A DNA stretch of 64,000 bases from a virus, in the UHGV virus genome UHGV-0200554; one strand, given 5' to 3'. The position numbers were made by a program, and so were the translations under genes. Below the pieces are notes generated by a model. The model was not told where the DNA came from. It did no database searches and was given only the letters and a program-made list of their open reading frames with translations. Below are positions 3,287 through 49,752 of the stretch, piece by piece. How positions within the stretch are numbered: the stretch's first letter is position 1; each line of letters opens with the position of its first letter.

Positions 3287-3801
3287 TGGACCGTGAAGGT
3301 CCGGCATGTAATGCCAGTTTATGGAATGTAATTTGTAGGCATGGAAGCTATTATTTTGCTTAGCTCTGTAATGATTAGCAGGCTGTGTGCTACAACCTTG
3401 TTGTACCTGAATCCTTAGGTTTCTAATGATTAGTTTGCTAAGTATTTATATGTGCCTAACCCCCTACCCCCGGTTCTAGTCTCCCCAACAACGCTGGTAC
3501 TTAAACTCTACCGTTATTGTGCCTTACTGCCCATATTACATCGCAGTTGGCTGGTCACTATAACCGCTCCCGCTCTCCAACCTCGACAAGCTCGTGCGAT
3601 ACTCCATTCATTCGGATGTTCACGCTGTTCACTCAGTCGATATTCCCCTATCTCCTTCAATCCGAAGAGAGAGAAACCCAGAATCGTATTCTGGAAAAGA
3701 GAGAGAAGATCTAAATTATAGCAGGAGATGAGAGGAATTGCAATATGGAGGATACCTACCAGAATTGGTAGGCATATGTGGACAGCACTTATTGACAAAA
3801 A

Positions 3802-4029
3802 CTACTCCGTATCGATATCTACCTCTGTGCCTTCCTCAGGTACAGATAACATAGCCATCTGTAGAGCTTCCTCCCAGTTAGTGCGCTCAGCCTGAGCCAC
3901 CAACTCATCCGGGTCTTTACCCAATGCTTCAGCTAACCGAGATACATAGAGTACACCAGGGAGAAGTTCAGGATCAAATTCAAGATAGAGAATCCCATCC
4001 CCATCTTCTGTGAAAAGCTCAAGTCGCAT
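3802..4029 (-). CDS. hypothetical acidic protein (75 aa)
   Basis: ORF in co-directional leftward gene block. Confidence 0.45.
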   Translation of the reverse strand: MRLELFTEDGDGILYLEFDPELLPGVLYVSRLAEALGKDPDELVAQAERTNWEEALQMAMLSVPEEGTEVDIDTE

Positions 4030-4284
4030 ACTGGCTCCTTATGTTGACTTCATACAGGTTGTACGATGCCTAAAGAGTGAAATTACTTTGTCTCTTCAGG
4101 CAACAGAGCTTGCGATTGTTGTGGATGTGTGGGCAGAGAAGCTACATAGTAGTGAATAGCTCCACGACATACTACAACAGTATGCATATCATTGTGACCG
4201 CTCCAGCTACACACAATATAGCACTTATGATTGCTAATGAGAACAGGCAGTAGCTGATAGCTGTGTCTGTAATATCACTTACCC

Positions 4285-4500
4285 TCATACGCTTCTCCTT
4301 GTTGCTCTTGCTACTTCAAAATAGTCTACATATCTTGATTCTTGCAGGATACGATAGCCTTCCCTATCTGCGTCTTCGATTGTGTGGAAGCGATCTCCAA
4401 GCTCCATACGCTCACCAGATTGTAAAACAATTATCAGCTTGTACATAGACCCTCCTTCATAATGCAAACTGATAATAGCACAGACAGGAGAAGGAGTCAA
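4285..4500 (-). CDS. hypothetical protein (71 aa)
   Basis: ORF in leftward block. Confidence 0.4.
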   Translation of the reverse strand: MTPSPVCAIISLHYEGGSMYKLIIVLQSGERMELGDRFHTIEDADREGYRILQESRYVDYFEVARATRRSV

Positions 4501-11683: not shown

Positions 11684-12139
11684 TTATTCAAAAAGTAGCT
11701 CTACGTGGTGTAAAATAAGCATTAATTGCATTAACACAATGACAAGAACTACCCAGTTGGCTTTATTATTAACAATTTTACGAATCTTTTCAGAACGTGA
11801 TTCAGGTAGAGATCTCAGGATACGCTCTACTGAACGATTCATATCACGGATAGCCATTTTAAAACTGTCCGATCCTTCATCTTGCTCCGTAACCACGTCG
11901 AAAGCACAGTCTTTAGCGTTACCTCCAGAACCACGAGTCACAATGAGTCGATACATTGACACAGAATAATGTGTATTCGACTCAGCGTCATAGATGCTGA
12001 GAACTTCTTTGGTATGGTCAATTGCTGATGAAAGTTTAATCGCACCAGCTGTCGTCTCAATTTTACCAGCCTCAAGGAGCATTAACCAATGCTTTTTATC
12101 CAGATTCTCAAGACTAGATCTGACGTACTTCACAAACAT
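11684..12139 (-). CDS. hypothetical protein with C-terminal transmembrane segment (151 aa)
   Basis: ORF. Confidence 0.45.
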   Translation of the reverse strand: MFVKYVRSSLENLDKKHWLMLLEAGKIETTAGAIKLSSAIDHTKEVLSIYDAESNTHYSVSMYRLIVTRGSGGNAKDCAFDVVTEQDEGSDSFKMAIRDMNRSVERILRSLPESRSEKIRKIVNNKANWVVLVIVLMQLMLILHHVELLFE

Positions 12140-12813: not shown

Positions 12814-13329
12814 CTATTTAAATTCTGCCATACTGCGGATCATCCGATCACGAGCTTTTCTGTGATGAGTACGCATACATTCTTCAAACACTCCAGAGAT
12901 AAATCTTGAAATGTAATCTCTTTCAGCTTTAGTTAGGAGTTCTTCCTCTTCTATTTCGACAGTTTTGTAAGCATATAGACCACATTCGTTGTAGCCTTCA
13001 TAATAATTCACAGCAATTTTAACAGGAAGATCATGACCTTCAAGGGTGAACGGTGTTAACCGACGCTCTGGGTGGCCTGTTTCCTCACCTTCAACAAAAT
13101 AAAGCGTATTATCATCGAACGCTTTGTCCATGCAAGCCACAAAAGCAGCTACTGCCTCAGAAACACCAGCGATAAAGTAAGCATATTTAGCTTTAGCCAT
13201 CATGATTTGATGACGTTTTACATCTGCTTCAGTGTGCTTTCCTGAAGCATAGTAATAATATGTGTGGATCTTATCCGGCGATACGTAAAAGTCTTCCCAA
13301 GTGTACAGTAGCTTGCTCATAGTGGTCAC
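12814..13329 (-). CDS. hypothetical protein (171 aa)
   Basis: ORF. Confidence 0.45.
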   Translation of the reverse strand: MTTMSKLLYTWEDFYVSPDKIHTYYYYASGKHTEADVKRHQIMMAKAKYAYFIAGVSEAVAAFVACMDKAFDDNTLYFVEGEETGHPERRLTPFTLEGHDLPVKIAVNYYEGYNECGLYAYKTVEIEEEELLTKAERDYISRFISGVFEECMRTHHRKARDRMIRSMAEFK

Positions 13330-13559
13330 TCCTCAACTATTTCGAACCCTAAACCGCCATGCTCTGGGAGCGGCAGAAGGGACATGTAGTAGGTATATCC
13401 GGGGGATATTCTTCCCTCTTTTGCACCTGCCTCTAATAAATCAACACCACGAATTATAACAATTGTCGGATCGGTTGTCAAGCGTTTACAGGGAACAATT
13501 TTGCCAACACAATCACAGAGGGATGGGTAACCGTGGTCGGTAAGGAATTTGACTTTCAT
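13326..13559 (-). CDS. small protein (77 aa), C-terminus ...FEIVEE, probable paralogue family member
   Basis: Shared C-terminal motif. Confidence 0.45.
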   Translation of the reverse strand: MKVKFLTDHGYPSLCDCVGKIVPCKRLTTDPTIVIIRGVDLLEAGAKEGRISPGYTYYMSLLPLPEHGGLGFEIVEE

Positions 13560-13600
13560 TTAAACCTCCTGAAAGGCCATCCCTGGCAGGCTAAAGAAAC

Positions 13601-14011
13601 TTACTGAACTGTTTTTGGAGCTACCATTGACAATTCTTCAATAGCGAAGAGTTCGTTACCCACAATGATATCTTCTTTTTCGCAGTTTTCAGGGTCTTCC
13701 GCGTAAATCAGAGCTACTTCATCAAATTTACAACCGATGCGATTGCCCTTATTGTCTTCCATCTGCATACGAGGATGTTCAGTCATGCAGATGTATCCGT
13801 CTGTACCGACAGTACCTTCCATAGGTTCCTGACCTGCTACTAGGATCAGGATTGTTGCACCTTTAGGTACAAAACCCATCACCTGAACAGTGTCACCAAC
13901 AATACTTTCACCGAAATGAGTTTTCTCAAACATTGTGTCTTTCACCACTGTGGCGAATTCACCGTTCACTTCTTTCTTGCCGCTCTCACCTGTTACGATT
14001 TCGATTTTCAT
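13601..14011 (-). CDS. hypothetical protein (136 aa)
   Basis: ORF. Confidence 0.45.
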   Translation of the reverse strand: MKIEIVTGESGKKEVNGEFATVVKDTMFEKTHFGESIVGDTVQVMGFVPKGATILILVAGQEPMEGTVGTDGYICMTEHPRMQMEDNKGNRIGCKFDEVALIYAEDPENCEKEDIIVGNELFAIEELSMVAPKTVQ

Positions 14012-14023
14012 CGTGGACTCCTG

Positions 14024-14284
14024 TTATTTCCAAGTGTTCATGTATTTTATTAAATCTAACATATCCCTGCCATGATCCAGATCATAAATTTCATCAGCCG
14101 GAATCATGCCAGTCAGTCTTTTGAAGTGCTCATCCTTACGCAGCATCTCACGGCACCACCAACCGCTACCTTCAGGTTTTTCACCTTGTGTGATGAATAG
14201 CTCTGTATAGTGTTTGTTTTTGCGGAACCAGATGTTGAATTTAACGTAAGCCATAAGCACCTCCGATGTTTTGAATAGTAACAC
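14024..14284 (-). CDS. hypothetical protein (86 aa)
   Basis: ORF. Confidence 0.4.
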   Translation of the reverse strand: MLLFKTSEVLMAYVKFNIWFRKNKHYTELFITQGEKPEGSGWWCREMLRKDEHFKRLTGMIPADEIYDLDHGRDMLDLIKYMNTWK

Positions 14285-14291
14285 ACATCTA

Positions 14292-14588
14292 TTACCATGT
14301 CAACATCAAAAACACAAATACAGCATCTTTTTCTGGATTCATCCCGATCACATCCACAGATATACCACCAGATCTTAGGTCAGCTATCATGTGAGGAATG
14401 TAATCTGACAGATGCTCAGGTATTTTCAGCGTGAATGAGCAGCCAAAGAAGCCTGCAACTGCCTTTTCTTTGGCTGTAGCCACAACTGCATCATAAAGCT
14501 CGTTCATCTCTTTAGGAAGCGTTACAGGAGCTTTCATGGCCAGGTTGTGTAGCGTATCTCTTGCGTTCATTATTCTGGTCCTATCCAC
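14292..14588 (-). CDS. hypothetical protein (98 aa)
   Basis: ORF. Confidence 0.4.
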   Translation of the reverse strand: MDRTRIMNARDTLHNLAMKAPVTLPKEMNELYDAVVATAKEKAVAGFFGCSFTLKIPEHLSDYIPHMIADLRSGGISVDVIGMNPEKDAVFVFLMLTW

Positions 14589-15088
14589 ATGAATGGTGGA
14601 AGTTTCAGCAGGTCCTGTTTATCCCACACAAAGAAGGCATACGCCTGACCATCAGTTCTGCCGTTCTCCTGGAAGGATGGACGCTTGGCAATGGTGATTA
14701 TCGTTGTGGGTTGGTGGGTTTGCCACCACTCATAACGTGTCTTTGACTCAAGAAAATTCAGACGAAGTAGCATGATCACCACATCAGCATCACTCAGACC
14801 TTTCTCAATAAACTCTTGAGCTTTAGAGAAGGGCGGGTTGGTCACAATGCAGTTAACATGTGGGTAATCTGTTTTCAGATAGTCCACACCTTCCTGAATT
14901 TCACCCCAGGCTGAACCTAACGGCATATTGCTGTAGAACGGCCCTGTTGCACTGTTTCTGCACGGCTCCATGAACGTGAAGTGGTCAGGGAAGTCAATCA
15001 GTTCGAATAGTGCATCCGCTAAATATTGTGGGGTGACATATTCATCATAGGGTTTACGTTCACTATCTGGCTTGCGAGCACAGGTCAT
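14570..15088 (-). CDS. small protein with NPPF motif (VTNPPF), possible N6-adenine methyltransferase-like
   Basis: Motif-IV-like NPPF in ORF translation; no clear SAM-binding motif found by eye. Confidence 0.35.
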   Translation of the reverse strand: MTCARKPDSERKPYDEYVTPQYLADALFELIDFPDHFTFMEPCRNSATGPFYSNMPLGSAWGEIQEGVDYLKTDYPHVNCIVTNPPFSKAQEFIEKGLSDADVVIMLLRLNFLESKTRYEWWQTHQPTTIITIAKRPSFQENGRTDGQAYAFFVWDKQDLLKLPPFMWIGPE

Positions 15089-15101
15089 AAATAAATCTCC
15101 A

Positions 15102-15126
15102 GATCAAAAAAGCCCTCCGAAGAGGG
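15102..15126 (-). terminator. intrinsic terminator (AGCCCTC-loop-GAGGGCT + T6 on minus strand)
   Basis: Hairpin plus TTTTTT immediately downstream of ClpP-like gene. Confidence 0.6.
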
Positions 15127-15142
15127 CTTAGCGTTATGTTAA

Positions 15143-16156
15143 TCAGCCCAGCAATTTATCATGAAGATCTTTGCCAGCTTTGATGATTTTTTTAACCAGA
15201 CGACCACGGTTGTTGTCTTTAACTTCAATTTCTTCACCAGTTAAAGCACCGTGTAACTGAACCAGAATCTCACGGAGTTCTGCAACAGTGAAGTCTTTCA
15301 GCTCTTCTTCACTTAACGTTGCAACGTTCAGTTTAAAGTTACGACCATCGTCCATCAGCAGATTCAGATAAACATCTTTCGGTTTATCTTCTTCCTTGTC
15401 TTTAGCTTTCGCTTCATGGATAGCTTTTACCAGTTCTTCCATAGAATTGCATTGACGAACTTCCGGTAAACCTTCTTCACCTAACAAGCCACGGTCTTTG
15501 TTGAAAGGCAGAGCCTGCTGACCAGCCTGAATACGTGCAATATTCTCTTCGTCAAGGATGATTGCACCAGTGCGTTCAGCCATGTCTTCTTCGTTCAACC
15601 AGACCTGACCACCACCTTTAATTTTCGCAATCTCTTCTTCAGTCAGAACACCAGTGTACATTTTATCAATCAAGCGATCAAAATGACGTTTGAAGAAAGT
15701 TACCTGATCGTGCATGTTAGCACCGTCACCATAAGTCCCGCCCTGGTAGTTATGGAACATGAATTCACAGTTCGGAGACAAAGTACGTTCTTTTGCACCT
15801 AACCACAGAATAGTACCAGCAGAGCAGACCATACCTTCAGCGTGAGTAACTACATGGCCCTGAGATTCACGCATTGCTTGGAGATAAGCCATAGCAATGT
15901 TAACGCAACCCCCTGGGCTATTGATGATAATTCTAATAGAATCATCAGGTTGCAGCATACGAATCAGTTGTAAACGAGATAGATGGTCCTGAAGGTCTTC
16001 TAAGTCATCAATATAGATGACATGATCCATAACCGGAGCAGGATAGCTGTATGTTTCCATGATGCCACCAGGCATACCGAACATTTTGTTCTGCATCGGT
16101 TCTACTGCTTTCTCGTTGCGTTCAGGCTGACGACGATTGTTATAAAATTTGTTCAT
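15143..16156 (-). CDS. ClpP-family (S14-like) serine protease with ~150-aa C-terminal helical extension
   Basis: INSPGG, GMVCSAG (Ser) and FMFHN (His) motifs; start moved to Met with AAGGA RBS. Confidence 0.6.
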   Translation of the reverse strand: MNKFYNNRRQPERNEKAVEPMQNKMFGMPGGIMETYSYPAPVMDHVIYIDDLEDLQDHLSRLQLIRMLQPDDSIRIIINSPGGCVNIAMAYLQAMRESQGHVVTHAEGMVCSAGTILWLGAKERTLSPNCEFMFHNYQGGTYGDGANMHDQVTFFKRHFDRLIDKMYTGVLTEEEIAKIKGGGQVWLNEEDMAERTGAIILDEENIARIQAGQQALPFNKDRGLLGEEGLPEVRQCNSMEELVKAIHEAKAKDKEEDKPKDVYLNLLMDDGRNFKLNVATLSEEELKDFTVAELREILVQLHGALTGEEIEVKDNNRGRLVKKIIKAGKDLHDKLLG

Positions 16157-16210
16157 GATAGCGATCCTTATGTGAGGGTAGACTTGTTGTAGCGTCACTG
16201 CATCACCACC

Positions 16211-16528
16211 TTATCTTGCTACAACGTATTTGTAAGTGTTGTCGTTCTCTGGAATTCCTGCAATGTCAACAATGTACCAGATTACACCGTCTATGTCAAC
16301 CTTTTCTCCAACAAATTTTACTTCACTTGTGAAATACTCCATAGACTCTGTGAACATCTTGTAAGACGAATTTGTCAAGATTGCCACACTTTCTACAGAA
16401 CCGTCAGGATTCTTAATCCATGCATTACGTGTTCCCTTATTGGCTACGATATAACCTTCACCTTTAGGGACAAGGCAATACACTTTGTTTAGTCTTTCTT
16501 GCAATGATAGGAATCTCTTTTCTGCCAT
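16211..16528 (-). CDS. hypothetical protein (105 aa)
   Basis: ORF. Confidence 0.45.
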   Translation of the reverse strand: MAEKRFLSLQERLNKVYCLVPKGEGYIVANKGTRNAWIKNPDGSVESVAILTNSSYKMFTESMEYFTSEVKFVGEKVDIDGVIWYIVDIAGIPENDNTYKYVVAR

Positions 16529-16617
16529 ACTTCGTTCTCCTCTTTATGGGACTAACTATAACAGAAACGATGAGGGTTGTCAACAGTTTTCTTTCAATAA
16601 ATTTTAAAATACTACCC

Positions 16618-16642
16618 ACAAAGGGGGCCGAAGCCCCCGTGT
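16618..16642 (-). terminator. intrinsic terminator (GGGGGCC-loop-GGCCCCC) downstream of PhoH-like gene
   Basis: Perfect GC hairpin followed by T-rich tract on minus strand. Confidence 0.5.
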
Positions 16643-16651
16643 TGTGAGTGA

Positions 16652-17440
16652 TTATTCAGATACCGGAGTCCAGATTTTATTTTTACGGTCTTCAATAAGG
16701 TTAAGAGCAATCTGGCGACCAATACCAGAACGGACTACATCATCTGGACTATCGAAGTCTACCATACCAACTTCTTCGTCCGGGTGACGAGTGAAGAAGT
16801 CAGTAACCCATGCAAGGCCAGAACGACCTGCAATATCGCGTTGCGAGTTATCACCCATGATTACCAGCGTTGCCTGGTCTGAAACACGAGTGATGATCGA
16901 CAACATTTCTTCCGGTGAAGTTTGCTGTGCTTCGTCAATCAGTACAAAGCAGCGTTCGTCGAAAGAACGACCACGAATTGATTCAACTTCGCAAATCTCA
17001 ATGCGGCTGTTCTGACCATCACCAAGCATAGCTGCAAATGCACCACCACCAACCTGACGGCGAATAGTGTCCATCATGCTACGCAAATAAGGCCAAAGTT
17101 TCTGCATCGCATTACCAGGTTTAAACCCTGAAGTTTTACCAGTCTGAACATATGGACGTGCAACAATGATTTTATCAATCTCATTTTTGCGTAACTGTTG
17201 ACCAGCAAAAGCTGAAGCCATGAACGTTTTACCGCTACCGAACACACCGTTTACGATAACAATCTTCTTAGTTTGTAAGAAGTGCAGATATAACCCTTGT
17301 TTTTTGTTGAGAGGACGGATAGCAGGAGCATTATACTCACGTTCTTCAGCAAATTTTTCCGCTGCGTGTCTCATACGCTCGTTTTTACGAGCTTCTTTAG
17401 CATCTTCACGCATACGACGAGTTTCGCGACTTCTACCCAT
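16652..17440 (-). CDS. phoH: PhoH-like P-loop ATPase
   Basis: Walker A GVFGSGKT and PhoH-like overall pattern in ORF translation. Confidence 0.75.
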   Translation of the reverse strand: MGRSRETRRMREDAKEARKNERMRHAAEKFAEEREYNAPAIRPLNKKQGLYLHFLQTKKIVIVNGVFGSGKTFMASAFAGQQLRKNEIDKIIVARPYVQTGKTSGFKPGNAMQKLWPYLRSMMDTIRRQVGGGAFAAMLGDGQNSRIEICEVESIRGRSFDERCFVLIDEAQQTSPEEMLSIITRVSDQATLVIMGDNSQRDIAGRSGLAWVTDFFTRHPDEEVGMVDFDSPDDVVRSGIGRQIALNLIEDRKNKIWTPVSE

Positions 17441-17534
17441 TTTGGGACTCCTTAGTTGAGGATAATTGGGGAATATTGTTTCAGACCGCTACACTTCAGC
17501 ACCGCACGGCCTAATCAACGGCTGTTTTCTTGAA

Positions 17535-17894
17535 TCATCCCAGGAGTTCAGTTAAAGATTGATCAAGTCCGGCTGCTACGCCTTGTACACGAATGTTGAG
17601 TTTCTCTGTGTGGATCAGTTCCTCCAGCTCTTTCACGGAGAACTCTTTCGCCATTGCATCCACCATAATCTCCCGCACTTTGGCCTGAGTTTTAGCTAAC
17701 AATGCTTTTTCAAGTTGTTTAGCTTTTGCTTCCAGGTCTTTCATTAGGCGAGGATCGGTAGATTTCTGTAGTAACAGGCGAATACCTTCCAATTCAAATT
17801 GAATACTTTCAGCATGGCCTGCCATCATACGTGGAAATACTAAATCCACAAATTCTTGAGCCAAAGCTCTGCGTTTGTCTACATTAATCGGCAT
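17535..17894 (-). CDS. hypothetical helical protein (119 aa)
   Basis: ORF. Confidence 0.45.
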   Translation of the reverse strand: MPINVDKRRALAQEFVDLVFPRMMAGHAESIQFELEGIRLLLQKSTDPRLMKDLEAKAKQLEKALLAKTQAKVREIMVDAMAKEFSVKELEELIHTEKLNIRVQGVAAGLDQSLTELLG

Positions 17895-18114
17895 TATTCT
17901 TCTTCCTCTTCTTTTGCTTTACGTTTTGCCCTTTCCATTTCTTCATGTTTACGCCGACGTTTAAGCTCCAGTGCCATTTCTTTCTTCAGAGCTTTTTTCA
18001 GCATTTTCTTAGCCATCTCAAGGCCCCTCCTCTGTTTTGTTGAGCTAAGTATAACAAAGTTTACTGAGCTTTGTCAACCAATCTTTTAAGTATCATGTAT
18101 TGTTTGCTTGCTTT

Positions 18115-18600
18115 TCAATCAACCTTGTGCCAGATACCATCTTTCTTAACATAAAAGCACTGATTATCAGAGCCACGGAAAGGTTTCTTTGTTGGCAGGT
18201 CTTTCTCATATCTGCCATCGATAAGCATGTCAGCAAGGCATTCTACCTGGGCACGTACCCAAATCGGTAGTTCTTCCAATACGTAGCCAGTATACACTAA
18301 AATGGTCTTCTTGTCACCAAATTTTTTGCGGATTTCTCGCATTACTGAAAGAATGCCTTCCACGTTATAAGGTGCAAGAGGTTCACCACCGAGGAAACTG
18401 ATTCCGTCGATGTAGTTATTATCCAGATCTTGAAGTATTTTGTCAAGATGTTTTTCTGAAAATGGTGTACCTTTATCTGGGTCGAAATAGGAAGCGTTAA
18501 AACACCCCTTGCAGTGATGTATGCAACCAGACACCCACACAGCAACCCTGATACCTGGCCCCTCTGTATAAGAGGCCGAATCATAACCAACTATGTTCAT
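18115..18600 (-). CDS. nrdG: anaerobic ribonucleotide reductase activating protein (radical SAM)
   Basis: CxxxCxxC-type cluster (GCIHHCKGC); GGAGG RBS before internal Met; adjacent to nrdD. Confidence 0.8.
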   Translation of the reverse strand: MNIVGYDSASYTEGPGIRVAVWVSGCIHHCKGCFNASYFDPDKGTPFSEKHLDKILQDLDNNYIDGISFLGGEPLAPYNVEGILSVMREIRKKFGDKKTILVYTGYVLEELPIWVRAQVECLADMLIDGRYEKDLPTKKPFRGSDNQCFYVKKDGIWHKVD

Positions 18601-18658
18601 CTTCCTCCCTCCAAAAAGATGCACATCCTTGTGCATCATTAGTAAATTACTCATCATC

Positions 18659-20794
18659 TCACAACATGCAGTGATCACCGCCTACATGTTTAACCCTCTC
18701 TATAACTTCCTGCTGTTTACCAACGTTGAACGGACGAGCGTTTGGTGCACTCAAGTAACCAGATACACGCCGGATTACAGAGAGTGTTGCAGGATCATGG
18801 TTACCACATTCTGGGCATTCGAAACCTTTTGCTGTTGCCTTAGCTTCGCCTTTAAAGCCACATTTCATACAAAAATCAACAGGTTGGTTTACCCCGTAGT
18901 ACATAATATGCTTGTAACCAAAATCAATAAGGGCTTCTAAAGCACCGAGGTTATTTCTCAGGTTTGGTGTCTCAATGTAACCAATGTTACCTCCGTTGGA
19001 GATCGTGGCAAAACCTTCCTCGTATAACCATTTGTCAAAAGGTGTTGTATATAACCACACAGGTTGGTGGAAGCTGTTAGTCAGGTATTCACGTTCATGT
19101 TCCAGCACCCCAGGATACGCTCTGTCTAAGCAAGTAGCTGATTTATAGCATAAACTTTCGCTCGGCGTGCCGTACAAGCTAAAACCTAATCTGCTGCGTT
19201 CTTTGAACTCAACGCATTTATCCTTCATGTGCTGGAGGATACCCAGAGCAAGGTTTTTGTCGCCTTCCCTACCGAGGATTTGGCATGTTTCATAAACACC
19301 AATGTAGCCGATACTAATCGAAGCATAGCCATCAAAAAACAAACTGTCTATGGTTTCTTCGGGGTCAAGACGGGCAAGAACACCCTCACACCACATGATC
19401 GGGTTCTGCCCCGCTTTTGTCCCTTTCAGGCGGTTGACACGAACCATGTGGGCATCGTATGCCAGTTCAAGATATTCATCAAGAACAGCGTAGAAGTCCG
19501 TACCCTCTGTCTTAGCTTTCGCTGCAATCATAGGCAGGTTAAGGCTAACAACACCTAGATTGAAGCGCCCCAGATATTTCTCTTCACCTGTTTGTTGGTC
19601 GATATATTTAGAGAGGTAGCTTCTACATCCCATGCTTGTAACATCACCAGCAGTAGAACCTGTAACTTTTCTGTTCAAAGGCACAGAAACAAAGTCTGGG
19701 TAAATTCGTTCTGCTGAGCATTCCAAAGCCAGGCGTTTCAGGTCATAATTTGGGTCACCTGGGTTAAGGTTCACACCTTCTTCAAGGAAGAACAAAACTT
19801 TAGGGAATACCGGGGTTATATGATCCTCCCCAATACCACCTTTGTGAACCATAAGATAGTTTTTAGTAATCATCCTCCCAAATTTAGAAGTATCTAGACC
19901 TAAACTGATAGTCAAAAACGGAGTTTGGCCGTTGGTGCTGGTTAATGTGTTGATTTGATAGAGAAAACATTGCATACTATCGTACACATCTTTCTCTGTC
20001 ATTTCATCGGCGACGCTTTCCGGCAAACCGTGTTTTTTACAGAAAGATAAGTTTTTATTATGTGTTTTTTCTACATAAGGTACAAGATAGCGGTCTATGT
20101 GGCTGTACGTCTGCCCACCATATTGCCCACCAGAAACAGCAGCTGAAATTTGTGAAAGAACTGTTGCAGCTACATTAATAGAATTGGGTGTTCCTATAGT
20201 TGCGTTACCTATTGTAAATCCATGCTCCAGCATGTCTGGGTAATTTACAAGACAACAGTTTGTTAATGAACTGATAATATAGTCAAGATCGTGCACATGT
20301 ATAAAACCATCGGTATGTGCCTTCGAAATATGTTCCGGTAGGATCTGTGTCACAGCTAAGTGCTTGCTTAGAATCCCAGCCAGTAAATCACGATGAGTGT
20401 GCACATGCTTGGTGGGTTTGTTAGCATTCTCCTTGGTGAATTCATCACAGGATTGGTCAAGGAAACCATTAACATCTGCCAGTAGTTTACCACCAGCTTC
20501 ACGATTGTTGTCACGGGTTTTACGGTACTCAATGTAAGCACGGGCAGCATCCAGATAACCATAGCGCATCAAAGCGTTTTCCACCATTGTGTGGATTTCA
20601 GGTACTGTAATCTCCTCTTCATGCTGAGCATAACTTTCCAGCTCAGAAACAATCTCGTCAGCAACAAAGTGTGCTGCATGGAACGCTCTTACCACATCAG
20701 CCCCAGATGCCTCCAGGGCTTTTTGTGCAGCTACCACTATTTTACGAGCATCAAAAGGTTCTGTTGTCAGATCTCTCTTGATTACGTTTAACAC
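18659..20794 (-). CDS. nrdD: anaerobic ribonucleoside-triphosphate reductase (glycyl radical enzyme)
   Basis: 711 aa; C-terminal glycyl-radical motif RVSGYLS and CxxC...CxxC zinc ribbon; GTG start with GAGGAG RBS. Confidence 0.85.
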   Translation of the reverse strand: MLNVIKRDLTTEPFDARKIVVAAQKALEASGADVVRAFHAAHFVADEIVSELESYAQHEEEITVPEIHTMVENALMRYGYLDAARAYIEYRKTRDNNREAGGKLLADVNGFLDQSCDEFTKENANKPTKHVHTHRDLLAGILSKHLAVTQILPEHISKAHTDGFIHVHDLDYIISSLTNCCLVNYPDMLEHGFTIGNATIGTPNSINVAATVLSQISAAVSGGQYGGQTYSHIDRYLVPYVEKTHNKNLSFCKKHGLPESVADEMTEKDVYDSMQCFLYQINTLTSTNGQTPFLTISLGLDTSKFGRMITKNYLMVHKGGIGEDHITPVFPKVLFFLEEGVNLNPGDPNYDLKRLALECSAERIYPDFVSVPLNRKVTGSTAGDVTSMGCRSYLSKYIDQQTGEEKYLGRFNLGVVSLNLPMIAAKAKTEGTDFYAVLDEYLELAYDAHMVRVNRLKGTKAGQNPIMWCEGVLARLDPEETIDSLFFDGYASISIGYIGVYETCQILGREGDKNLALGILQHMKDKCVEFKERSRLGFSLYGTPSESLCYKSATCLDRAYPGVLEHEREYLTNSFHQPVWLYTTPFDKWLYEEGFATISNGGNIGYIETPNLRNNLGALEALIDFGYKHIMYYGVNQPVDFCMKCGFKGEAKATAKGFECPECGNHDPATLSVIRRVSGYLSAPNARPFNVGKQQEVIERVKHVGGDHCML

Positions 20795-20816
20795 AGCAAA
20801 ACTCCTCTAATTTTTA

Positions 20817-21137
20817 TCATTGATAATCTTTTGGATCACCAATGCCGAACTCTTTTTCAGCAATATCTACATCGGTGTCCCGTATTTGAGCTTCCATCTC
20901 TTGTCTGTCAAGTTCTTCCATTATGTTGATGACTTTTCCTTTAAATTCATCAAAATAAACATCATCGCGTAGTCGGTTATCATCTGTGAGGCCATTGAAC
21001 CACAACCATCCAACATATTCTGCACGACTACCAAAACCTCTTTCTTCCCATTTTTTACTCATTTTGCCCTCTGTATTATGCTTCAAGTCCAAACAATTTT
21101 TCAAGACGTTTGAAATCGTCAATGTCGAAAGGTTCAT
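20817..21137 (-). CDS. hypothetical protein (106 aa)
   Basis: ORF. Confidence 0.4.
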   Translation of the reverse strand: MNLSTLTISNVLKNCLDLKHNTEGKMSKKWEERGFGSRAEYVGWLWFNGLTDDNRLRDDVYFDEFKGKVINIMEELDRQEMEAQIRDTDVDIAEKEFGIGDPKDYQ

Positions 21138-21540
21138 CTTCGCCTATAGACATTTGTTGCTCTTTGTCCTGGCGTTTTGTGTACTTACGAACGTTCACGC
21201 GGTCTTCAACCGGAATATCATACGGCAGATCAGAAACCAGTAATGCATCTTCCGGTACTTCTTCTACGTCAAGAATATCCACACCATGATAAATTTCTGG
21301 ATACAGGAAATCTTTCCGCATTGTGCCAGCGAAGATATCTGCTTTACGATAATGTGTGGTTTTGTTTTTACAACGGACGTTCTTGCCTTTCATCACATCT
21401 ATGTTCTTGAGGTCAAAACCTACAGCATAGAGTGCAGCCCGTAGCCCGTTTCTTGTCTTAAGATTAACACCTGGCAACTGTGCCAGAAAATCAAGGGTCA
21501 CAGAGATAAATACTTTCTTAGGTGTCATCATATCGCTCAT
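21076..21540 (-). CDS. hypothetical protein (154 aa)
   Basis: ORF. Confidence 0.45.
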   Translation of the reverse strand: MSDMMTPKKVFISVTLDFLAQLPGVNLKTRNGLRAALYAVGFDLKNIDVMKGKNVRCKNKTTHYRKADIFAGTMRKDFLYPEIYHGVDILDVEEVPEDALLVSDLPYDIPVEDRVNVRKYTKRQDKEQQMSIGEDEPFDIDDFKRLEKLFGLEA

Positions 21541-22462: not shown

Positions 22463-23521
22463 CTACTCCTTTAAACTGTACACCCAGGGTTTAAGTATCG
22501 TTTTTTCTATCTCTTTTACAGCTTCCTTGACACTACCGTTGTTACTTACAGTATAGTGCTCGGCACAGGTATTTGTCAAGGGTTTTCGTGAATCGTTTTC
22601 CCAGGTACAACCTTGTCTTTCGAGATGTATAACAATAACTCTGAACCCCGCGTCTATAAGGACCTGCGCCTCTTCTTCAAAACCTGAATCAGAGCACAAC
22701 ACCAGGTTGCACTTATCTAAACGTATAGAGTTAAGGGTAAACCTACCGAACCAATCTTTTCCGTATTTTGGTTTAACATACTCCTCACTTAAGAACTTGA
22801 ACCACTCCCTGTTGGTATATAATTTACCACAAAACTCTATGTGTGGGATCCTCTCTTTGAAATCCCTGTTGTCATAAAAAGTTTCAAGCCTTTTATACAT
22901 TTCCTTAGACAACAGTTTGCGGCTCCAGTACCATAAACCTGATTTAAAACTGGCCTTGAAATGGTGCAGCCTGAATGCGTTACATATAAAATCCTTGCCA
23001 GAGCCTGGAGGTCCATTTAGCAATACGACGGTTTTTATCTTAAGAGCATCCTCTGCAAAATCTCTAGCAAAAGCGGCTTCCTCAAAAGTATCATAGTTCC
23101 CTAGAAATATAGACCTGTTGCTGCCGTCACCTATTCTAGCACACCATTTGCTATTATGTTTGCTAAAAGTTACTCCAGTTTTACCGCTTGTGTTGTTCGA
23201 ATACTTATTGCACCGTTTAGCAGCGCTGTTGTTAAATGTTTTACTCGTGCATTCAAGATTCCACACATAGTCCCCTACGTGGACTCCGTGCTTGTGGTTT
23301 ATTACCATATCTTCTGACAAGGGATAGTAAAACATTTCCCAGATAATCCTATGCCTTTTATATCTTTTACCATTGTACCAAATTCTCCAGTAACCCTTTT
23401 TTCCCTCTGGGCCTCCTGCAAGATCACCTGCGTTATGACTAAACCTCCCTTTTTTTCCTTCAGTTGCCTCTTTCCAGTACAGCTTGCCTTTATCATATGT
23501 GAAAATATTATTCCAATCCAT
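22463..23521 (-). CDS. in-frame fusion: N-terminal HNH-AP2 homing-endonuclease-like domain + C-terminal T4 gp1-like deoxynucleoside monophosphate kinase
   Basis: N-terminal HNH-type His/Asn pattern and AP2 motif (YDTFEEAAFARDF); C-terminal P-loop LLNGPPGSGKD and gp1-like VIVIHLERQG...NNGSVKEA; no ATG/RBS at junction. Confidence 0.6.
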   Translation of the reverse strand: MDWNNIFTYDKGKLYWKEATEGKKGRFSHNAGDLAGGPEGKKGYWRIWYNGKRYKRHRIIWEMFYYPLSEDMVINHKHGVHVGDYVWNLECTSKTFNNSAAKRCNKYSNNTSGKTGVTFSKHNSKWCARIGDGSNRSIFLGNYDTFEEAAFARDFAEDALKIKTVVLLNGPPGSGKDFICNAFRLHHFKASFKSGLWYWSRKLLSKEMYKRLETFYDNRDFKERIPHIEFCGKLYTNREWFKFLSEEYVKPKYGKDWFGRFTLNSIRLDKCNLVLCSDSGFEEEAQVLIDAGFRVIVIHLERQGCTWENDSRKPLTNTCAEHYTVSNNGSVKEAVKEIEKTILKPWVYSLKE

Positions 23522-27071: not shown

Positions 27072-27551
27072 TTAATCTGTAACCACACCTCCAGCATTAC
27101 GGAAAACCCTCAGCATTTTTTCAATATCCTCAACCCGCTGATCATAAAGTTTACCAGAACCTGGAGGTGGTGGGAAACTCGCCCAGCGGCTACGGCATTT
27201 ATAGATAGCTGAACGGATCCTCCCTTCATAAATGTCATCAAGGGCTTTACATTCACGGATCAGTTGTTTTGCTATAGCATCCTGACTTGCTGGGCCGAAA
27301 TCTCTTAAGCCGAGCTGTTTCATATAATGTTTGGCATATTTCTCCAAGATCTGATATCTGCCGAATGCTGATGACGTTAAGCCCGGACGTAGTTTGACAT
27401 AAATACCTGGGTGTTTACTAAGATCTTCTATATACCTCCCGCCACACAAGATGTGATACGAAGCAGCTTCGCTACCGTAACGGTCAGTTCCTTCACTGAA
27501 CGAAATCAACGAAAAAAATGCTCTCAATTGCTTATCCTTATTTAATTTCAT
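27072..27551 (-). CDS. endolysin, lambda R-family lytic transglycosylase
   Basis: Strong resemblance to lambda R: AFFSLISFSEGTD, GRYQILEKY, KQLGLRDFGPASQDA, WASFP. Confidence 0.85.
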   Translation of the reverse strand: MKLNKDKQLRAFFSLISFSEGTDRYGSEAASYHILCGGRYIEDLSKHPGIYVKLRPGLTSSAFGRYQILEKYAKHYMKQLGLRDFGPASQDAIAKQLIRECKALDDIYEGRIRSAIYKCRSRWASFPPPPGSGKLYDQRVEDIEKMLRVFRNAGGVVTD

Positions 27552-43625: not shown

Positions 43626-43642
43626 TCACGGGCAGGTGTAAA

Positions 43643-45223: not shown

Positions 45224-46783
45224 GTGTCCAAGAAAAGCCGTAGGAAAAACAACGCAGCAGCCAAAGCGAGGGCTGTGAAAAAAGCTGGAAATCAAGATGC
45301 CCAGGTGCACAATGTTCGTCTGGGAGAGATTGGTTCCGGTGCACTGGCTCAGATCCAATTTGAATCTCAGCAGATGATGGTTGAGGAGTTGCGTTGGCCC
45401 AACCTTATCGCTACCGTAGAGACGATGAAATGCGACTCAACAGTAGCTACCGCTCTGGATTCTAAATATGTACTGATCACCAAAGCCTTCAACGATTTCA
45501 AAATTCTCTGTAATGAAGAGAGTGAAGAATCTAAGAAAGCAGCAGCATTTATCGACTATGCCCTGCGTAATCTCTCTAATCAGCAAACACTTCGTGATAT
45601 TGCAAGAAGTGCAGCCACCTTTAATGAATACGGCTTCTCAATATTTGAGAAAGTTTACCGTCGTGAACAGGAAGGGGAGTACGCTGGTAAATTAGTTATT
45701 GACAAGTTTGCATTCAGACCTCAAGCGAGCCTGTCCCGCAGTAACCCGTTCCAGTTTGATAAAAATAGTCGTAAACTTGAAGGTATATGGCAGTCACCGA
45801 ATGCGTTTGTTAATTTCAAACGTAATTCATACGCTGGCCCACTACTTTCTGCTCCGGCAAACTTCAACGGTGAGGAGATTTTCATTCCGGCTAAGAAAAT
45901 CATGATCATGACTCTTTCCGGTACAGAGTCCAATCCGGCAGGTGTTTCACCTATGATTGGTTGTTACAGATCCTTCCGTGAGAAAGTGCTGATCGAAAAC
46001 CTGGAAGTGGTTGGTTGCTCCAAAGATCTTGGTGGTGTGCTTGAGCTGAAAATACCGTCCAACATTCTGAATAAAGCAAGTATCGACCCCACCTCAATGG
46101 AAGGTCAGATGGTTGCTAACCTGATGGCAGATGCTGCAAATGCCCACTCCGGTGAACAGAGTTTCTTTATTCTCCCATCGGATCGTGATAAATCAGGTAA
46201 AGAACAGTATTCCATGGACCTGAAAGGGATCAATGGTGCTGGTAAACAATACTCCACCAAAGATCTTGTTGATGCACGTAAGAAAGCTATCCTTGATAGA
46301 TTTGGTGCTGGTTTTATTAACTTAGGTAACGACAACGTTGGTTCTTACTCGTTGTCCGAGTCCAAACAGTCTTTACATGGTCACTTCGTTAACCGTGATA
46401 TTGACATTATTGTTGAGGCTTTCAACAAAGACTTCATTCCCCAGATGCTGGCGCTGAACGGTATCTACCTCTCCAATGAGGATATGCCGAAACTCAAACC
46501 AGGGTTGACTGAAAAAGTTGACATGGAAGAGTTCTCCAAATTCGTACAGCGTATTGGTGCAGTTGGTTATCTGCCTAAAACTCCGGGTGTTATCAATAAA
46601 ATCCTTGAAGTTGGTGGTTTTGACTACCGCGTTGATGAGGATATTGACACTGAAGAGTTAATGCAAATACTGGGTCAGGATGTAAGTCGGTCAGGTGACG
46701 GTATGGCGGCGGGGACCAACGGTAATGGCACGTCCAGAATGTCATCCACACGCGATAATTCTGTATCAAATATGGAAAATTAA
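45224..46783 (+). CDS. portal protein (putative)
   Basis: 519-aa ORF immediately after terminase; assignment by size and position. Confidence 0.5.
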   Translation: MSKKSRRKNNAAAKARAVKKAGNQDAQVHNVRLGEIGSGALAQIQFESQQMMVEELRWPNLIATVETMKCDSTVATALDSKYVLITKAFNDFKILCNEESEESKKAAAFIDYALRNLSNQQTLRDIARSAATFNEYGFSIFEKVYRREQEGEYAGKLVIDKFAFRPQASLSRSNPFQFDKNSRKLEGIWQSPNAFVNFKRNSYAGPLLSAPANFNGEEIFIPAKKIMIMTLSGTESNPAGVSPMIGCYRSFREKVLIENLEVVGCSKDLGGVLELKIPSNILNKASIDPTSMEGQMVANLMADAANAHSGEQSFFILPSDRDKSGKEQYSMDLKGINGAGKQYSTKDLVDARKKAILDRFGAGFINLGNDNVGSYSLSESKQSLHGHFVNRDIDIIVEAFNKDFIPQMLALNGIYLSNEDMPKLKPGLTEKVDMEEFSKFVQRIGAVGYLPKTPGVINKILEVGGFDYRVDEDIDTEELMQILGQDVSRSGDGMAAGTNGNGTSRMSSTRDNSVSNMEN

Positions 46784-46850: not shown

Positions 46851-47279
46851 ATGTCTACAACTGAAGAGATGATTTCATACGAGATCATCTACGAACCAAA
46901 CACTAAAGATGCTCACGGCGAGTGGATGTCCGAAGAAACTCTTCGCAAAGCGAAAGAAAGCTGGGACATGGCATACGCCGCTGGCATCGCCAGAGAAAAC
47001 CTTTTCCATCTCACCTCCACTGAAGCATTCACTATCGAAAAAACCTGGATTCAGGAAGAACTTGATGTGGTTGTTGCAGAAACCGGACAACCTATCAAGG
47101 CTGGATCATGGGTAGCTAAAGTGAAATACAATAACGAAGCCTTGTGGGAAGCTAAGAAAGCTGGCATTGTCGGTGGACTAAGCATCCAGTGCACAGGCCA
47201 TGTTAACGAAGAGACAGGTGAGATTACAGATATCAATTTCGGGGCCACAATCGTGGAAAATGAAGAGGGCGATGAATAA
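46851..47279 (+). CDS. head morphogenesis protein (142 aa), possibly a short prohead protease
   Basis: Position between portal and scaffold; no convincing catalytic motif. Confidence 0.3.
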   Translation: MSTTEEMISYEIIYEPNTKDAHGEWMSEETLRKAKESWDMAYAAGIARENLFHLTSTEAFTIEKTWIQEELDVVVAETGQPIKAGSWVAKVKYNNEALWEAKKAGIVGGLSIQCTGHVNEETGEITDINFGATIVENEEGDE

Positions 47280-48334
47280 TGGCAGACACCATCAAAATTC
47301 AAGAGAAGGGCATTGCACTGTGCCATGAAGCACAAGGTTTCAGTGCCAATAACCGTCCGATCTCTTTGCTGATGAAAAGTGATCTTGAACCAGAACAGTT
47401 GACAGCTGATATTGTCAAAGCTCTGCGTCAGGTCACGGTGGATCTTAGTTTTGAAGAATACCTCATGAGATTCTTCGGTTTGTGGGCCTATGATGCTAAA
47501 AAATTAGCCGCACTTCTGGGGTTTGAAATCGAAGAGGAAGCCTTCGCTAGAGAACACCCAGACAATGATTGGGCGCAAGCCGACGCTGAAATGGTTCGTG
47601 AATGGCTGGAAGAAGTAAACTCCACAGTAACGATCCACAAAGCTGCTCAGGAAGGTAAAGACCTTTCTTTAGTCGAACAATATGAACTTCTGAAAGCACA
47701 GCAGAAGTTCGAGGAAGTAACCGCTGATCTCTTCGATGCAGAAGGGAACCTTATTAAAGCGGTCGAAGACCCAGTAGAACCTGAGGTGAAACATGAACCT
47801 CAACCGGAGCCGAAACCGGAACCTGTACCTGAAGAAGTAGTTCCAGTTAAGCCTGTGAAAGAAGTTCCTGAAAAAACCCCAGCTAATACTGATAACAATG
47901 AACCCGCAAATATCGAGGGGAATACGGTGGAAGATGTAACCAAATCTCAAGAGTACATTGACCTGTTGAAACAGTTTGAAGCATTGCAGGCTAAACAAGC
48001 AGAAGCCGATGCAATCATCAAAGCTCAGGTTGAACTCAAAAAAGCAGAAATGCTTGAAAAAGCTAAAGCTCTTAGCTTCGTAACTGAAGAAGATCATGAA
48101 ATGCTGGTTGACTTCATGTTAGAAAAAGCTAATGAAGCAGTTGTCGCACTTCTTGAAAAAGCTCAGGCACGTATTGCTGAACTTGAAGCGGAAGTTAAAA
48201 AAACCAAAGAAGAATTCGCAACCGCCGAACACGGTAAAGACGGCGAACCTATTGTGGATGATGTTCAAAAATCCGCAGAAGAAATCCTTGCAGAAAACGT
48301 AGCGAAAGCTCTCGCTGCAAAAGCTAACAAATAA
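47279..48334 (+). CDS. scaffolding protein (putative)
   Basis: Acidic, Pro/Glu-rich linker and long coiled coil; precedes capsid gene. Confidence 0.5.
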   Translation: MADTIKIQEKGIALCHEAQGFSANNRPISLLMKSDLEPEQLTADIVKALRQVTVDLSFEEYLMRFFGLWAYDAKKLAALLGFEIEEEAFAREHPDNDWAQADAEMVREWLEEVNSTVTIHKAAQEGKDLSLVEQYELLKAQQKFEEVTADLFDAEGNLIKAVEDPVEPEVKHEPQPEPKPEPVPEEVVPVKPVKEVPEKTPANTDNNEPANIEGNTVEDVTKSQEYIDLLKQFEALQAKQAEADAIIKAQVELKKAEMLEKAKALSFVTEEDHEMLVDFMLEKANEAVVALLEKAQARIAELEAEVKKTKEEFATAEHGKDGEPIVDDVQKSAEEILAENVAKALAAKANK

Positions 48335-48346
48335 TTCAAGGGGAAA

Positions 48347-48724
48347 ATGATGATCACCACTCAATATTCTGATATCGTGCTCGGCAAAGTAGACGCAAGC
48401 GATGCTGGCTTCAACTTTAAAGAGATCGAAATCACTCTGACTGATGACCATGTAGCAGGTGCTGTAGTTACCGCTACTGGTACTCTGGCTAACGCAGATG
48501 GTTCTGATACATTCGGTGTTCTGGTAGACCGTGCCTTACTGCCTGATTCTGCTGGTCGTGTAAACCTGGCTGAACCGCTGACTATTGGTCAGACCTATAA
48601 ACTGGTTGTTGCTGTTCGCGGCGTTACCTTTGCAAAAGAACATCTGGTTATCGCTGACGGTGCAGAAGCTCCTGAAGCTGTTCTGAAAGCTCTGGAAGCT
48701 CGTGGTAACAAAGTTCAAGAATAA
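48347..48724 (+). CDS. small head protein (possible decoration protein)
   Basis: 125-aa ORF directly upstream of capsid gene. Confidence 0.4.
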   Translation: MMITTQYSDIVLGKVDASDAGFNFKEIEITLTDDHVAGAVVTATGTLANADGSDTFGVLVDRALLPDSAGRVNLAEPLTIGQTYKLVVAVRGVTFAKEHLVIADGAEAPEAVLKALEARGNKVQE

Positions 48725-48747: not shown

Positions 48748-49752
48748 ATGATCACTCGTAAAGATGATTTTGGTATTGTTGACCTGGGTGCAACTCTTGA
48801 GCTGGTTCCACGCCAATTCCGTCTGATCACTGGCATGAACCTTTTTGAAACCCACCTGGGTACTTCTACCATCGCACAAATCGAACGTGTTGACGAAATC
48901 GTAGCAGATATCCCTGCTCGTCGTCGTGGTGGTGAACGTAACTACGTAGGTAGCGAACGTGCTCAGATCAAAAACCTGAACATCCCGTTCTTCCCATTGG
49001 ATAAAGGGATTACAGCAGCTGACGTTCAAAACTTCCGTCGCTACTTTACTCCTGATGCTCCGAAAACTGTGGAAGATGTTGTAACTCGTGTAGTTCGCCG
49101 CATCCGTATCTCCCATGAAGCTCTGCGTGAAAAAGCACTGTTTGCTGCTGTCATGGGTAAATCCTATGCTCCTGGTGATGCAACCTGCAAATATGACTAT
49201 TACACCCTGTGGGGCGTAACTCAGAAATCCATCGAAATCGATCCGGCTGATGCTGCTCAGGACCCGATGGAAGTTATCGAAGAAGGTCGTCTGCACATTG
49301 CTCTGCAAGCTGGTGACAATGCTGGTGCATACCGCATTATTTGCCTGTGCTCTCCTGAATTCTTCAGTGCACTGGTTCATCATCCGCTGGTAGAACTGGC
49401 TTACACCTACTACAGCTCACAACAGGAACCTCTGCGTCGTCGTCTGGGTGCTGGCGGTGAAAATTCAGTCTATCGCGTATTTGAACACAAAGGCATGACC
49501 TTCATCGAAGATATCTCCGGCAACATCCCGGCAAAAGAAGCACGTTTAGTACCGATGGGTATTGATGCTATGTTCCAGCTGCACTTTGCTCCGGCAGATG
49601 ACCTGGCAGAAGCAAATACTCCGGCACAAGAACTGTACATGTGGTACAAACACTCAGCTTATCTGCGTGAAGAAAAAGTTGAGTCTGAAACCTCTATGCT
49701 GGCTGTTAACACCCGTCCTGAACTGGTTGTTAAAGTCACTCTTCATGAATAA
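48748..49752 (+). CDS. major capsid protein (putative)
   Basis: 334 aa; after scaffold, before strong terminator; E. coli-like high-expression codons. Confidence 0.55.
   Translation: MITRKDDFGIVDLGATLELVPRQFRLITGMNLFETHLGTSTIAQIERVDEIVADIPARRRGGERNYVGSERAQIKNLNIPFFPLDKGITAADVQNFRRYFTPDAPKTVEDVVTRVVRRIRISHEALREKALFAAVMGKSYAPGDATCKYDYYTLWGVTQKSIEIDPADAAQDPMEVIEEGRLHIALQAGDNAGAYRIICLCSPEFFSALVHHPLVELAYTYYSSQQEPLRRRLGAGGENSVYRVFEHKGMTFIEDISGNIPAKEARLVPMGIDAMFQLHFAPADDLAEANTPAQELYMWYKHSAYLREEKVESETSMLAVNTRPELVVKVTLHE

Follow-up and report, generated by a model that had tools for sequence, protein, structure and literature searches.

Genes for ClpP-like proteins are widespread in large lytic phages (rV5-like, ICP1, KVP40-like, T5-like and Pseudomonas phages), where they often stand after a PhoH gene. 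Annotation of the family goes back to the rV5 genome paper; it has an entry in PHROGs, and its closest described members are rV5 ORF122/gp117 and the 'ClpP-like protease' of the BASEL phages (PHROG 5410). Short stand-alone ClpP-like proteins of ICP1 (gp211), KVP40 (ClpP), Sugarland (gp045) and phiPsa267 (gp047) are collected in PHROG 1827, and related protease domains are found in cellular ClpP (MEROPS S14) and in the ClpP-related head-maturation proteases (NF045542; PHROGs 1684, 94 and 2976). The gene described here lies at 15143..16156 on the minus strand of a 64,000-nucleotide stretch of the virus genome UHGV-0200554, hereafter called the window, and its product is a divergent new member of this family. 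An earlier note on this stretch had proposed either a maturation protease encoded far from the head genes or a protease acting on host or phage regulators. The latter, widened to host or phage proteins, is the better reading: the gene is regarded as probably encoding an accessory, intracellular, non-structural ClpP-fold serine peptidase of the replication/metabolism module, which probably lacks canonical docking to ClpX/ClpA, and a role as a capsid-maturation protease is very unlikely.

The window protein has the domain order and the gene neighbours of the rV5 and BASEL proteins, of which it is an orthologue; it is 60-61% identical to the copies of the cultured Vequintaviruses and carries Gln184 at a position that is Glu in four family members, the Vequintavirus-like P0002-P0004 among them. 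With the PHROG 1827 proteins it shares 24-37% identity in the protease domain, the catalytic Ser and His, the Gly-Gly pair and a nucleotide/replication neighbourhood, often after PhoH, whereas their C-terminal regions are unlike its own in sequence and length and the third triad position is occupied by Asp or Glu. With cellular ClpP it shares the fold including the handle helix, the INSPGG oxyanion motif and the positions of Ser and His, but its N-terminal region is unlike the axial loop, the acidic-Arg pair beside the triad Asp is replaced by Gly-Gly, and an extension of 127 amino acids follows the ClpP fold. The ClpP-related head-maturation proteases combine the same protease domain with a non-catalytic C-terminal region; the window gene differs from theirs in lying outside the head module, in which the head slot is filled by a different protease.

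Gene, family and selection

The open reading frame (ORF) runs from an ATG at 16156 to a stop codon at 15143-15145 and encodes 337 amino acids. A Shine-Dalgarno-like AAGGA is placed 8 nt before this ATG, and a metagenomic protein 97% identical to the product was also called from the ATG start; an alternative GTG start (16196-16198) would give a possible product of 351 amino acids. The ORF was matched by Pfam PF00574 (CLP_protease; E=1.5e-15, 57.9 bits, cut-off 20.2) and, in full length, by PHROG 5410 ('ATP-dependent protease'; E=1.7e-128), with residues 22-336 aligned to profile positions 4-318 of 323 across the protease domain, the linker and the C-terminal domain. The word 'ATP-dependent' in the database label derives from the Pfam name and finds no support here. 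For the comparisons within the family, an alignment of 35 members with 41-97% identity was used.

The ratio of nonsynonymous to synonymous substitution rates (dN/dS), calculated against four relatives of 96-98% identity, was 0.04-0.08 over the whole gene. It was highest in the linker (0.11-0.16) and at most 0.02 in the C-terminal domain, and the first 43 codons had zero nonsynonymous changes. The gene is therefore functional and its tail important, and the gene as a whole is real and under strong purifying selection. The synonymous rate itself (dS) was 0.04-0.25 in the first 43 codons (16028-16156, minus strand) versus about 0.3-0.9 in the rest of the gene with the same four relatives, for which a recombination boundary is one possible cause and a superimposed RNA or regulatory constraint another.

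Catalytic domain and active site

Structure prediction, which had been suggested as a check, was done with AlphaFold2 for the monomer only, from the 35-sequence family alignment, and gave a confident ClpP fold and a separate C-terminal domain, with a mean predicted local distance difference test score (pLDDT) of 77 for the whole model. The ClpP-fold catalytic domain (residues 44-210; 15527..16027, minus strand), the long handle helix included, was modelled at a pLDDT of about 90, and the top 50 Foldseek matches to it in the PDB were all ClpP (target-normalised template-modelling score about 0.57-0.77, E about 1e-11). The motifs on which the ClpP-like assignment had first been based were located in this domain, namely INSPGG at residues 78-83, GMVCSAG with Ser112 (codon 15821-15823, minus strand) and FMFHN with His135 (codon 15752-15754, minus strand), and the assignment itself was borne out by the Pfam match and by the predicted fold.

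Ser112, His135 and the oxyanion-hole glycines of INSPGG (Gly82/Gly83) are invariant in the 35-member family, and also in the comparison with the ICP1, H101, KVP40 and phiPsa267 homologues and with E. coli ClpP, in which Ser112 and His135 align to S97 and H122, respectively; this invariance reaches relatives of 26% identity. At the position of the triad Asp (D171 in E. coli ClpP), the window protein has Gln184 (codon 15605-15607, minus strand). This residue is Gln in 31 and Glu in 4 of the 35 family members and Asp or Glu in the distant homologues of ICP1, KVP40, H101 and phiPsa267, and the position therefore behaves as part of an active site, with an unusual amide here. Residue 188 is Asn in the window protein and Asp in 33 of the 35 members. 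Judged by these alignments, the ClpP-like protein looks catalytically competent.

Terminal regions and C-terminal domain

The N-terminal 43 amino acids (16028..16156, minus strand) carry an NxxFG...YSYP motif that is conserved in the family alignment, and residues 1-38 are predicted to be disordered (pLDDT <50). The catalytic domain is followed by a linker of about 50 amino acids (residues 211-260; 15377..15526, minus strand) with low pLDDT, 40% of D/E/K/R and a length that varies by insertions and deletions across the family, and then by a family-specific, acidic C-terminal domain of 77 amino acids (residues 261-337; 15146..15376, minus strand) with an isoelectric point (pI) of 5.3. In a model of residues 232-337, the fold is a beta-hairpin followed by a short helix and a pair of long helices with an extended joint, at a pLDDT of 82-92. 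A charged helical tail of about 150 amino acids had been described before; the extension is there, but it is about 127 amino acids long and is not purely helical, since it consists of the charged linker and a folded 77-residue domain with a beta-hairpin.

The profile of the C-terminal domain was searched against 1.84 billion representative proteins, among which only its own family, fragments and one spurious repeat protein were matched, and a search of BFVD gave one family member as the only significant match. Alignments by hhalign of this domain with the tails of the ICP1 and H101 homologues and with the scaffold protein of the window were not significant; the ICP1 and H101 homologues are also long (326 and 351 amino acids, respectively) and end in a similar-looking helix-loop-helix. 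A nucleic-acid binder of the SAP/HeH/Rho_N type was considered and rejected, the hhalign comparison with Rho_N and SAP sequences being insignificant and the acidity of the domain making nucleic-acid binding unlikely. A protein-protein docking module is the better guess for this domain.

Comparison with cellular ClpP and head-maturation protease models

For the docking of ClpX/ClpA, a hydrophobic pocket for the IGF/LGF loop was considered, which we take to be formed in E. coli ClpP by L48, F49, Y60, Y62, F82, I90, M92, F112 and L114. The alignment of the window protein with E. coli ClpP is ungapped from the INSPGG motif to the catalytic Ser, and the nine residues correspond to Q63, L64, R75, I77, E97, H105, E107, T125 and S127, respectively. 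Seven of the nine are thus polar or charged, and six of these seven are invariant or nearly so throughout the family; T125 is invariant and S127 alternates between Ser and Ala. Canonical ClpX/ClpA docking is, on this alignment, probably absent. No AAA+ unfoldase was found among the 10 large minus-strand ORFs (200-433 amino acids) that were scanned.

The curated ClpP models were missed by a wide distance (TIGR00493, 38.8 bits with a cut-off of 308.6; NF001368, 44.9 bits with a cut-off of 249). The top NCBIfam match was NF045542 ('head maturation protease, ClpP-related') at 55.2 bits, which also missed its cut-off of 120, and the same ordering of NCBIfam matches, with NF045542 first, was obtained for the ICP1, H101, KVP40 and phiPsa267 homologues. 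The PHROG head-maturation families scored 59-85 bits. By these scores the family falls between cellular ClpP and the ClpP-type head proteases of phages, with a small lean towards the head proteases, and by the cut-offs it belongs to neither.

The head module and its own protease

The head genes lie about 30 kb from the ClpP-like gene on the opposite strand, as had been stated before. They are encoded on the plus strand in the order portal protein (45224..46783; PHROG 113, Pfam Portal_Mu), XkdF-type (Peptidase_S78_2) prohead protease of 142 amino acids (46851..47279; Pfam PF14550), head scaffold protein of 351 amino acids (47279..48334; PHROG 2970), head decoration protein (48347..48724; PHROG 2680) and major capsid protein (Phage_cap_E; 48748..49752; Pfam PF03864, E=3.8e-39, PHROG 29). 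The same order of portal, protease, scaffold, decoration and coat is found in Vequintavirus JeffSchatz, ICP1 and Curvibacter phage P26059A. The statement of the earlier note that no clear prohead protease is present in the head module was wrong. The 142-residue protein was matched by PF14550 with E=3.7e-16 and 59.7 bits (cut-off 24), and its identity to the 'prohead protease' of the BASEL Vequintaviruses is 78%, that to the 'capsid protease' gp125 of ICP1 35%. Its residues D20, H22 (DAHG), H53, D72 and S111 (GLS) are invariant across homologues of 27-78% identity. It is a bare protease domain, in difference from the ICP1 and P26059A versions of 278 and 255 amino acids, respectively. This XkdF-type protein would serve as the head-maturation protease, an activity that is predicted in these phages. 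With the head slot occupied in this way, the premise for a remotely encoded maturation protease fails. Two findings had been named before as telling against such a protease: a canonical prohead protease within 46.8-48.4 kb, which was found, and catalytic inactivity of the ClpP-like protein, which was not, Ser112 and His135 being invariant.

The scaffold protein is 28% identical to ICP1 gp124 (E=5e-10), the scaffolding activity of which has been proven experimentally (PMC10002752), and its counterpart in the BASEL phages is annotated as 'head scaffold protein'. Mass spectrometry of Certrevirus CB7 virions showed CB7_5, the 'prohead core protein protease' orthologous to the XkdF-type protein, together with the portal, decoration and capsid proteins, and the proteins listed include no Clp protein (PMC7344957). 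Nineteen proteins, all of them named in the paper, were identified in rV5 virions by mass spectrometry, and ORF122 was not among them (PMC3606486).

The large terminase gene upstream of the portal gene (41691-45123, plus strand) is split into the ORFs 41691-42806 and 44044-45123. Between them lie two group-I-intron-like matches (42758-43004, 38 bits; 43050-43951, 47.9 bits; Rfam gathering score 50), and the second holds an ORF for an Endonuclease_7-type homing endonuclease (43643-43927). The terminase gene of rV5 is reportedly in three segments with a homing endonuclease, and that of JeffSchatz is uninterrupted. In the first terminase ORF, the part that matches the large terminase is preceded by about 235 further residues at the N-terminus, and residues 11-120 weakly match a PhoH-like PHROG (E=1.8e-14); the extension may be genuine, or it may stem from an upstream gene that was fused or wrongly joined.

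Homologues in other phages and expression timing

Ten lineages were sampled by hand for the breadth of the PhoH linkage. A PhoH gene lies at most 1 kb upstream of the ClpP-like gene in ICP1 and in Pseudoalteromonas phage H101 (Shandongvirus), overlaps it from upstream in Otagovirus phiPsa267, and is found 2.1 kb upstream, with HNH insertions between, in Certrevirus PcCB7V. PhoH is not adjacent in KVP40 (T4-like; order frd, clpP, uvsX), in Sugarland (T5-like; dNMP kinase, that is, deoxynucleoside monophosphate kinase, followed by ClpP), in PAK_P1 (unannotated immediate neighbours, with deoxycytidine monophosphate (dCMP) deaminase and ligase about 2.3 kb downstream), in Roomu-2, and in Dorisvirus (Schitoviridae), where the ClpP-like gene is near the large terminase gene. 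The neighbours in these distant phages are mostly genes of nucleotide metabolism and replication. Several lineages have the order ClpP, dCMP deaminase and ligase in common, and part of the PhoH linkage may therefore be inherited. In KVP40, Sugarland and ICP1 the homologue is an extra gene besides other head proteases or head modules (in ICP1, gp211 besides gp125).

RNA sequencing of the ICP1 infection placed gp208 (PhoH) and gp211 (ClpP) in the 'Middle-late' class, in a nucleotide-metabolism subset peaking at 12 min, and placed gp122-125 (capsid, decoration, scaffold and S78_2 protease) in the 'Late' class (PMC7567579). No transcriptomes of Vequintavirinae were found in the literature. In the ICP1-infected V. 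cholerae, host clpS and clpA were differentially expressed, with log2 changes of about +1.0 and +0.7, respectively (PMC7567579 supplementary file 1), a change that might matter should the Clp system of the host interact with ClpP-like proteins of phages.

Local transcription unit and neighbouring genes

Upstream of the ClpP-like gene on the same strand lies an ORF of 105 amino acids (16211..16528; PHROG 5456), for which no Pfam or PDB sequence match was obtained and which is probably co-transcribed with it. A sigma-70-type promoter-like site (16555..16583, minus strand; TTGACA-17-TATAGT with an extended -10 TG) precedes this ORF; the equivalent site of rV5, upstream of ORF121, bears an annotated sigma-70 promoter, P121. 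The promoter scan also gave a second, weaker promoter-like site at 16271-16299 (minus strand). At the other end, 14 nt past the stop codon of the ClpP-like gene, a strong, intrinsic-terminator-like hairpin (15110..15129, minus strand) is formed by AAGCCCTC-TTCG-GAGGGCTT and is followed by TTTTTT. PADLOC gave zero matches for the ClpP-like protease and for the 105-residue ORF.

The PhoH neighbour reported before is present, one small ORF upstream, as a PhoH-like P-loop ATPase (16652..17440, minus strand; Pfam PF02562, E=4.8e-46; PHROG 170). The gene order in the window is NrdD, NrdG, a hypothetical gene, PhoH, the 105-residue ORF, the ClpP-like gene and an N6-adenine methyltransferase, and it is the same in MaxTheCat and rV5; the ClpP-like gene is carried by every rV5-type phage, and its placement behind PhoH and the 105-residue ORF and ahead of the terminator is kept across rV5-like phages. 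A pattern scan of IMG/VR, from which only rV5-like loci (18) were obtained, gave the 105-residue ORF upstream of the ClpP-like gene, adjacent or 0.5 kb off, in all 18 loci and in MaxTheCat, and PhoH farther upstream in 17 of the 18 and in MaxTheCat. PhoH of the window is 85% identical to that of Vequintavirus, versus 61-63% for the ClpP-like gene. In one IMG/VR locus (L029; PhoH at 3570-4367), compared with L016-L018, PhoH is 45% identical to that of the window, and the flanking hypothetical 119-residue protein, 105-residue protein and ClpP-like protein are 96-99% identical; judged from these identities, PhoH alone has undergone a local allele replacement (mosaicism).

A strand switch near 38 kb separates the minus-strand replication/metabolism arm from the plus-strand structural arm, and the former also encodes a ligase, an exonuclease, a polymerase exonuclease subunit, a resolvase and a dNMP kinase. 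About 3 kb downstream of the ClpP-like gene, it encodes a homologue of 151 amino acids (11684-12139, minus strand; PHROG 7821) of the rV5 'virion structural protein' ORF133, which the rV5 paper counted among the predominant virion proteins. Within 13000-21500 of the window, 33 promoter-like sites were counted by the sigma-70 consensus versus 16.3 +/- 4.4 in shuffled sequence, about twice the expectation; several perfect or near-perfect TTGACA-17-TATAAT sites are found on the minus strand, among them those at 13481-13453, 18446-18418 and 18077-18048. This surplus fits the view of the rV5 paper that the host RNA polymerase transcribes this arm. ORFs like HNH homing endonucleases are found in the replication arm at 22463-23521, 27548-28273 and 32141-32785 (minus strand), the first of which is apparently fused in frame to a dNMP-kinase-like C-terminal half.

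Source phage

No megablast match to 14-18 kb of the window was obtained among GenBank phages, which means that no close cultured relative is present there and that tblastn was needed instead. By tblastn, the nearest GenBank relatives are the Vequintaviruses (rV5, V18 and the BASEL phages), with 60-61% identity over 97% of the ClpP-like protein, and IMG/VR contigs of 117-140 kb carry copies 96-98% identical to it. On these matches, the source of the window is an uncultivated rV5-like myovirus.

Discussion

We consider it probable that the ClpP-like gene encodes an accessory, intracellular and non-structural peptidase of the replication/metabolism module. The gene would be the last of a short sigma-70-type unit consisting of the promoter-like site, the 105-residue ORF, the ClpP-like gene and the intrinsic terminator, and this unit is placed in the DNA-replication/nucleotide-metabolism arm, just downstream of PhoH. 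By analogy with the ICP1 homologue, the protein would most likely be made in the middle phase of infection. The ClpP-like domain is predicted to cut peptide bonds with Ser112 as the nucleophile, His135 as the base, Gly82/Gly83 as the oxyanion hole and Gln184 in place of the Asp. The acidic C-terminal domain, carried on the flexible charged linker, may dock substrates or a partner, or may drive self-assembly. The putative substrates would be host or phage proteins that are degraded or processed during takeover and replication.

Several points weigh against this reading. No functional study of any phage ClpP-like protein was found in the literature. The residues taken here to form the docking pocket were mapped by alignment and not by structure. 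The timing is taken from an ICP1 homologue that is only 37% identical, and over the protease domain only. The hidden Markov model scores are higher for head-protease models (PHROG 1684, 85 bits; NF045542, 55 bits) than for the models of cellular ClpP (about 45 bits). A protease followed by a flexible linker and a small helical C-terminal domain is a frequent look of capsid-targeted proteases. The homologue of ORF133, a virion protein, is encoded in the 'non-structural' arm, and therefore location alone is not decisive. Absence from the virion mass spectrometry is weak evidence because prohead proteases are normally lost from mature heads.

The head-protease scores, the domain layout and the virion protein encoded in the same arm are what would be expected if the gene encoded a capsid protease at a distance, either the true prohead protease or a second one acting, for example, on ejection proteins or internal proteins, and if its C-terminal domain directed it into the procapsid; that the activity of the XkdF-type protease rests on prediction can be added to them. 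This explanation is nevertheless unlikely, as the canonical head slot is already filled by a protease with invariant His and Ser, the NF045542 match at 55 bits stays below the cut-off of 120, and the C-terminal domain is without similarity to the scaffold protein by hhalign. The homologues are moreover extra genes in KVP40 and T5-like phages, that of ICP1 falls outside the late class, and the ClpP-like protein was found in neither the rV5 nor the CB7 virions. A genuine ATP-dependent ClpP, forming rings that are driven by host ClpX/ClpA or mixed with host ClpP and so redirecting host proteolysis, would agree with the complete ClpP fold including the handle helix and with the conserved Ser, His and oxyanion-hole glycines, and the lack of an unfoldase among the 10 ORFs scanned would make a host partner necessary. 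It is given only a small chance, because hydrophobic residues of the LGF/IGF pocket have given way to Gln, Arg, Glu, His, Glu and Thr, each invariant or almost invariant, and to Ser127, the N-terminal axial-loop region is unrelated and predicted to be disordered, the Glu/Asp-Arg pair is changed to Gly-Gly and the triad Asp to Gln, and the protein scores far under all curated ClpP cut-offs.

A module with the neighbours, in which the PhoH-like ATPase and/or the 105-residue protein would act as partner, adaptor or regulator, is suggested by the position of PhoH, which precedes the ClpP-like gene by 0-2.1 kb in each of five lineages (Otagovirus, where the two genes overlap, ICP1, Shandongvirus H101, Certrevirus and the rV5-like phages), by the 105-residue ORF always being a nearby upstream gene and by the common temporal class of PhoH and ClpP in ICP1. 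The old common gene order, in which ClpP is followed later by dCMP deaminase and ligase, offers inheritance as another source of this linkage, and PhoH is not adjacent in KVP40, Sugarland, PAK_P1, Roomu-2 and Dorisvirus. The swapped PhoH of L029 (45% identical), beside a ClpP-like gene that is still 96% identical, argues against tight co-adaptation, and PhoH is not an AAA+ unfoldase; such a module is judged improbable. A decoy with little or no catalytic activity, which would block a host factor by binding and not by cleavage, could be read from the change of the triad acid to Gln in 31 of the 35 members and from the Asn of the window protein at the nearly invariant D188. It is the most doubtful of these explanations and highly improbable, since even relatives of 26% identity have kept Ser112, His135 and the oxyanion-hole glycines unchanged, and the Glu in four members and the Asp or Glu in distant homologues indicate that the third position is selected as an active site.

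A more far-reaching version of the accessory-peptidase reading can be proposed, which we hold to be speculative and unlikely to be correct as a whole. In it, the family would be a phage-specific, AAA+-independent descendant of a ClpP-related head-maturation protease that moved to the replication/metabolism module and acquired another function there, for example in host takeover, anti-defence or protein recycling, with substrates recruited by the C-terminal domain and with the 105-residue protein and/or PhoH as adaptor or partner. If this were true, it would give the first functional context for phage PhoH.

For annotation, the normal head protease of this phage should be placed at 46851-47279, and the ClpP-like gene should be called neither a prohead protease nor a subunit of an 'ATP-dependent' Clp protease. 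The head-protease assignment, the apparent loss of the ClpX/ClpA docking pocket, the Gln in the triad and the private, highly constrained C-terminal domain are new here. If a phage ClpP-like protein were shown to degrade host or defence proteins without ClpX/ClpA, it would represent a new class of phage takeover enzymes, and this might explain the commonness of PhoH in phages.

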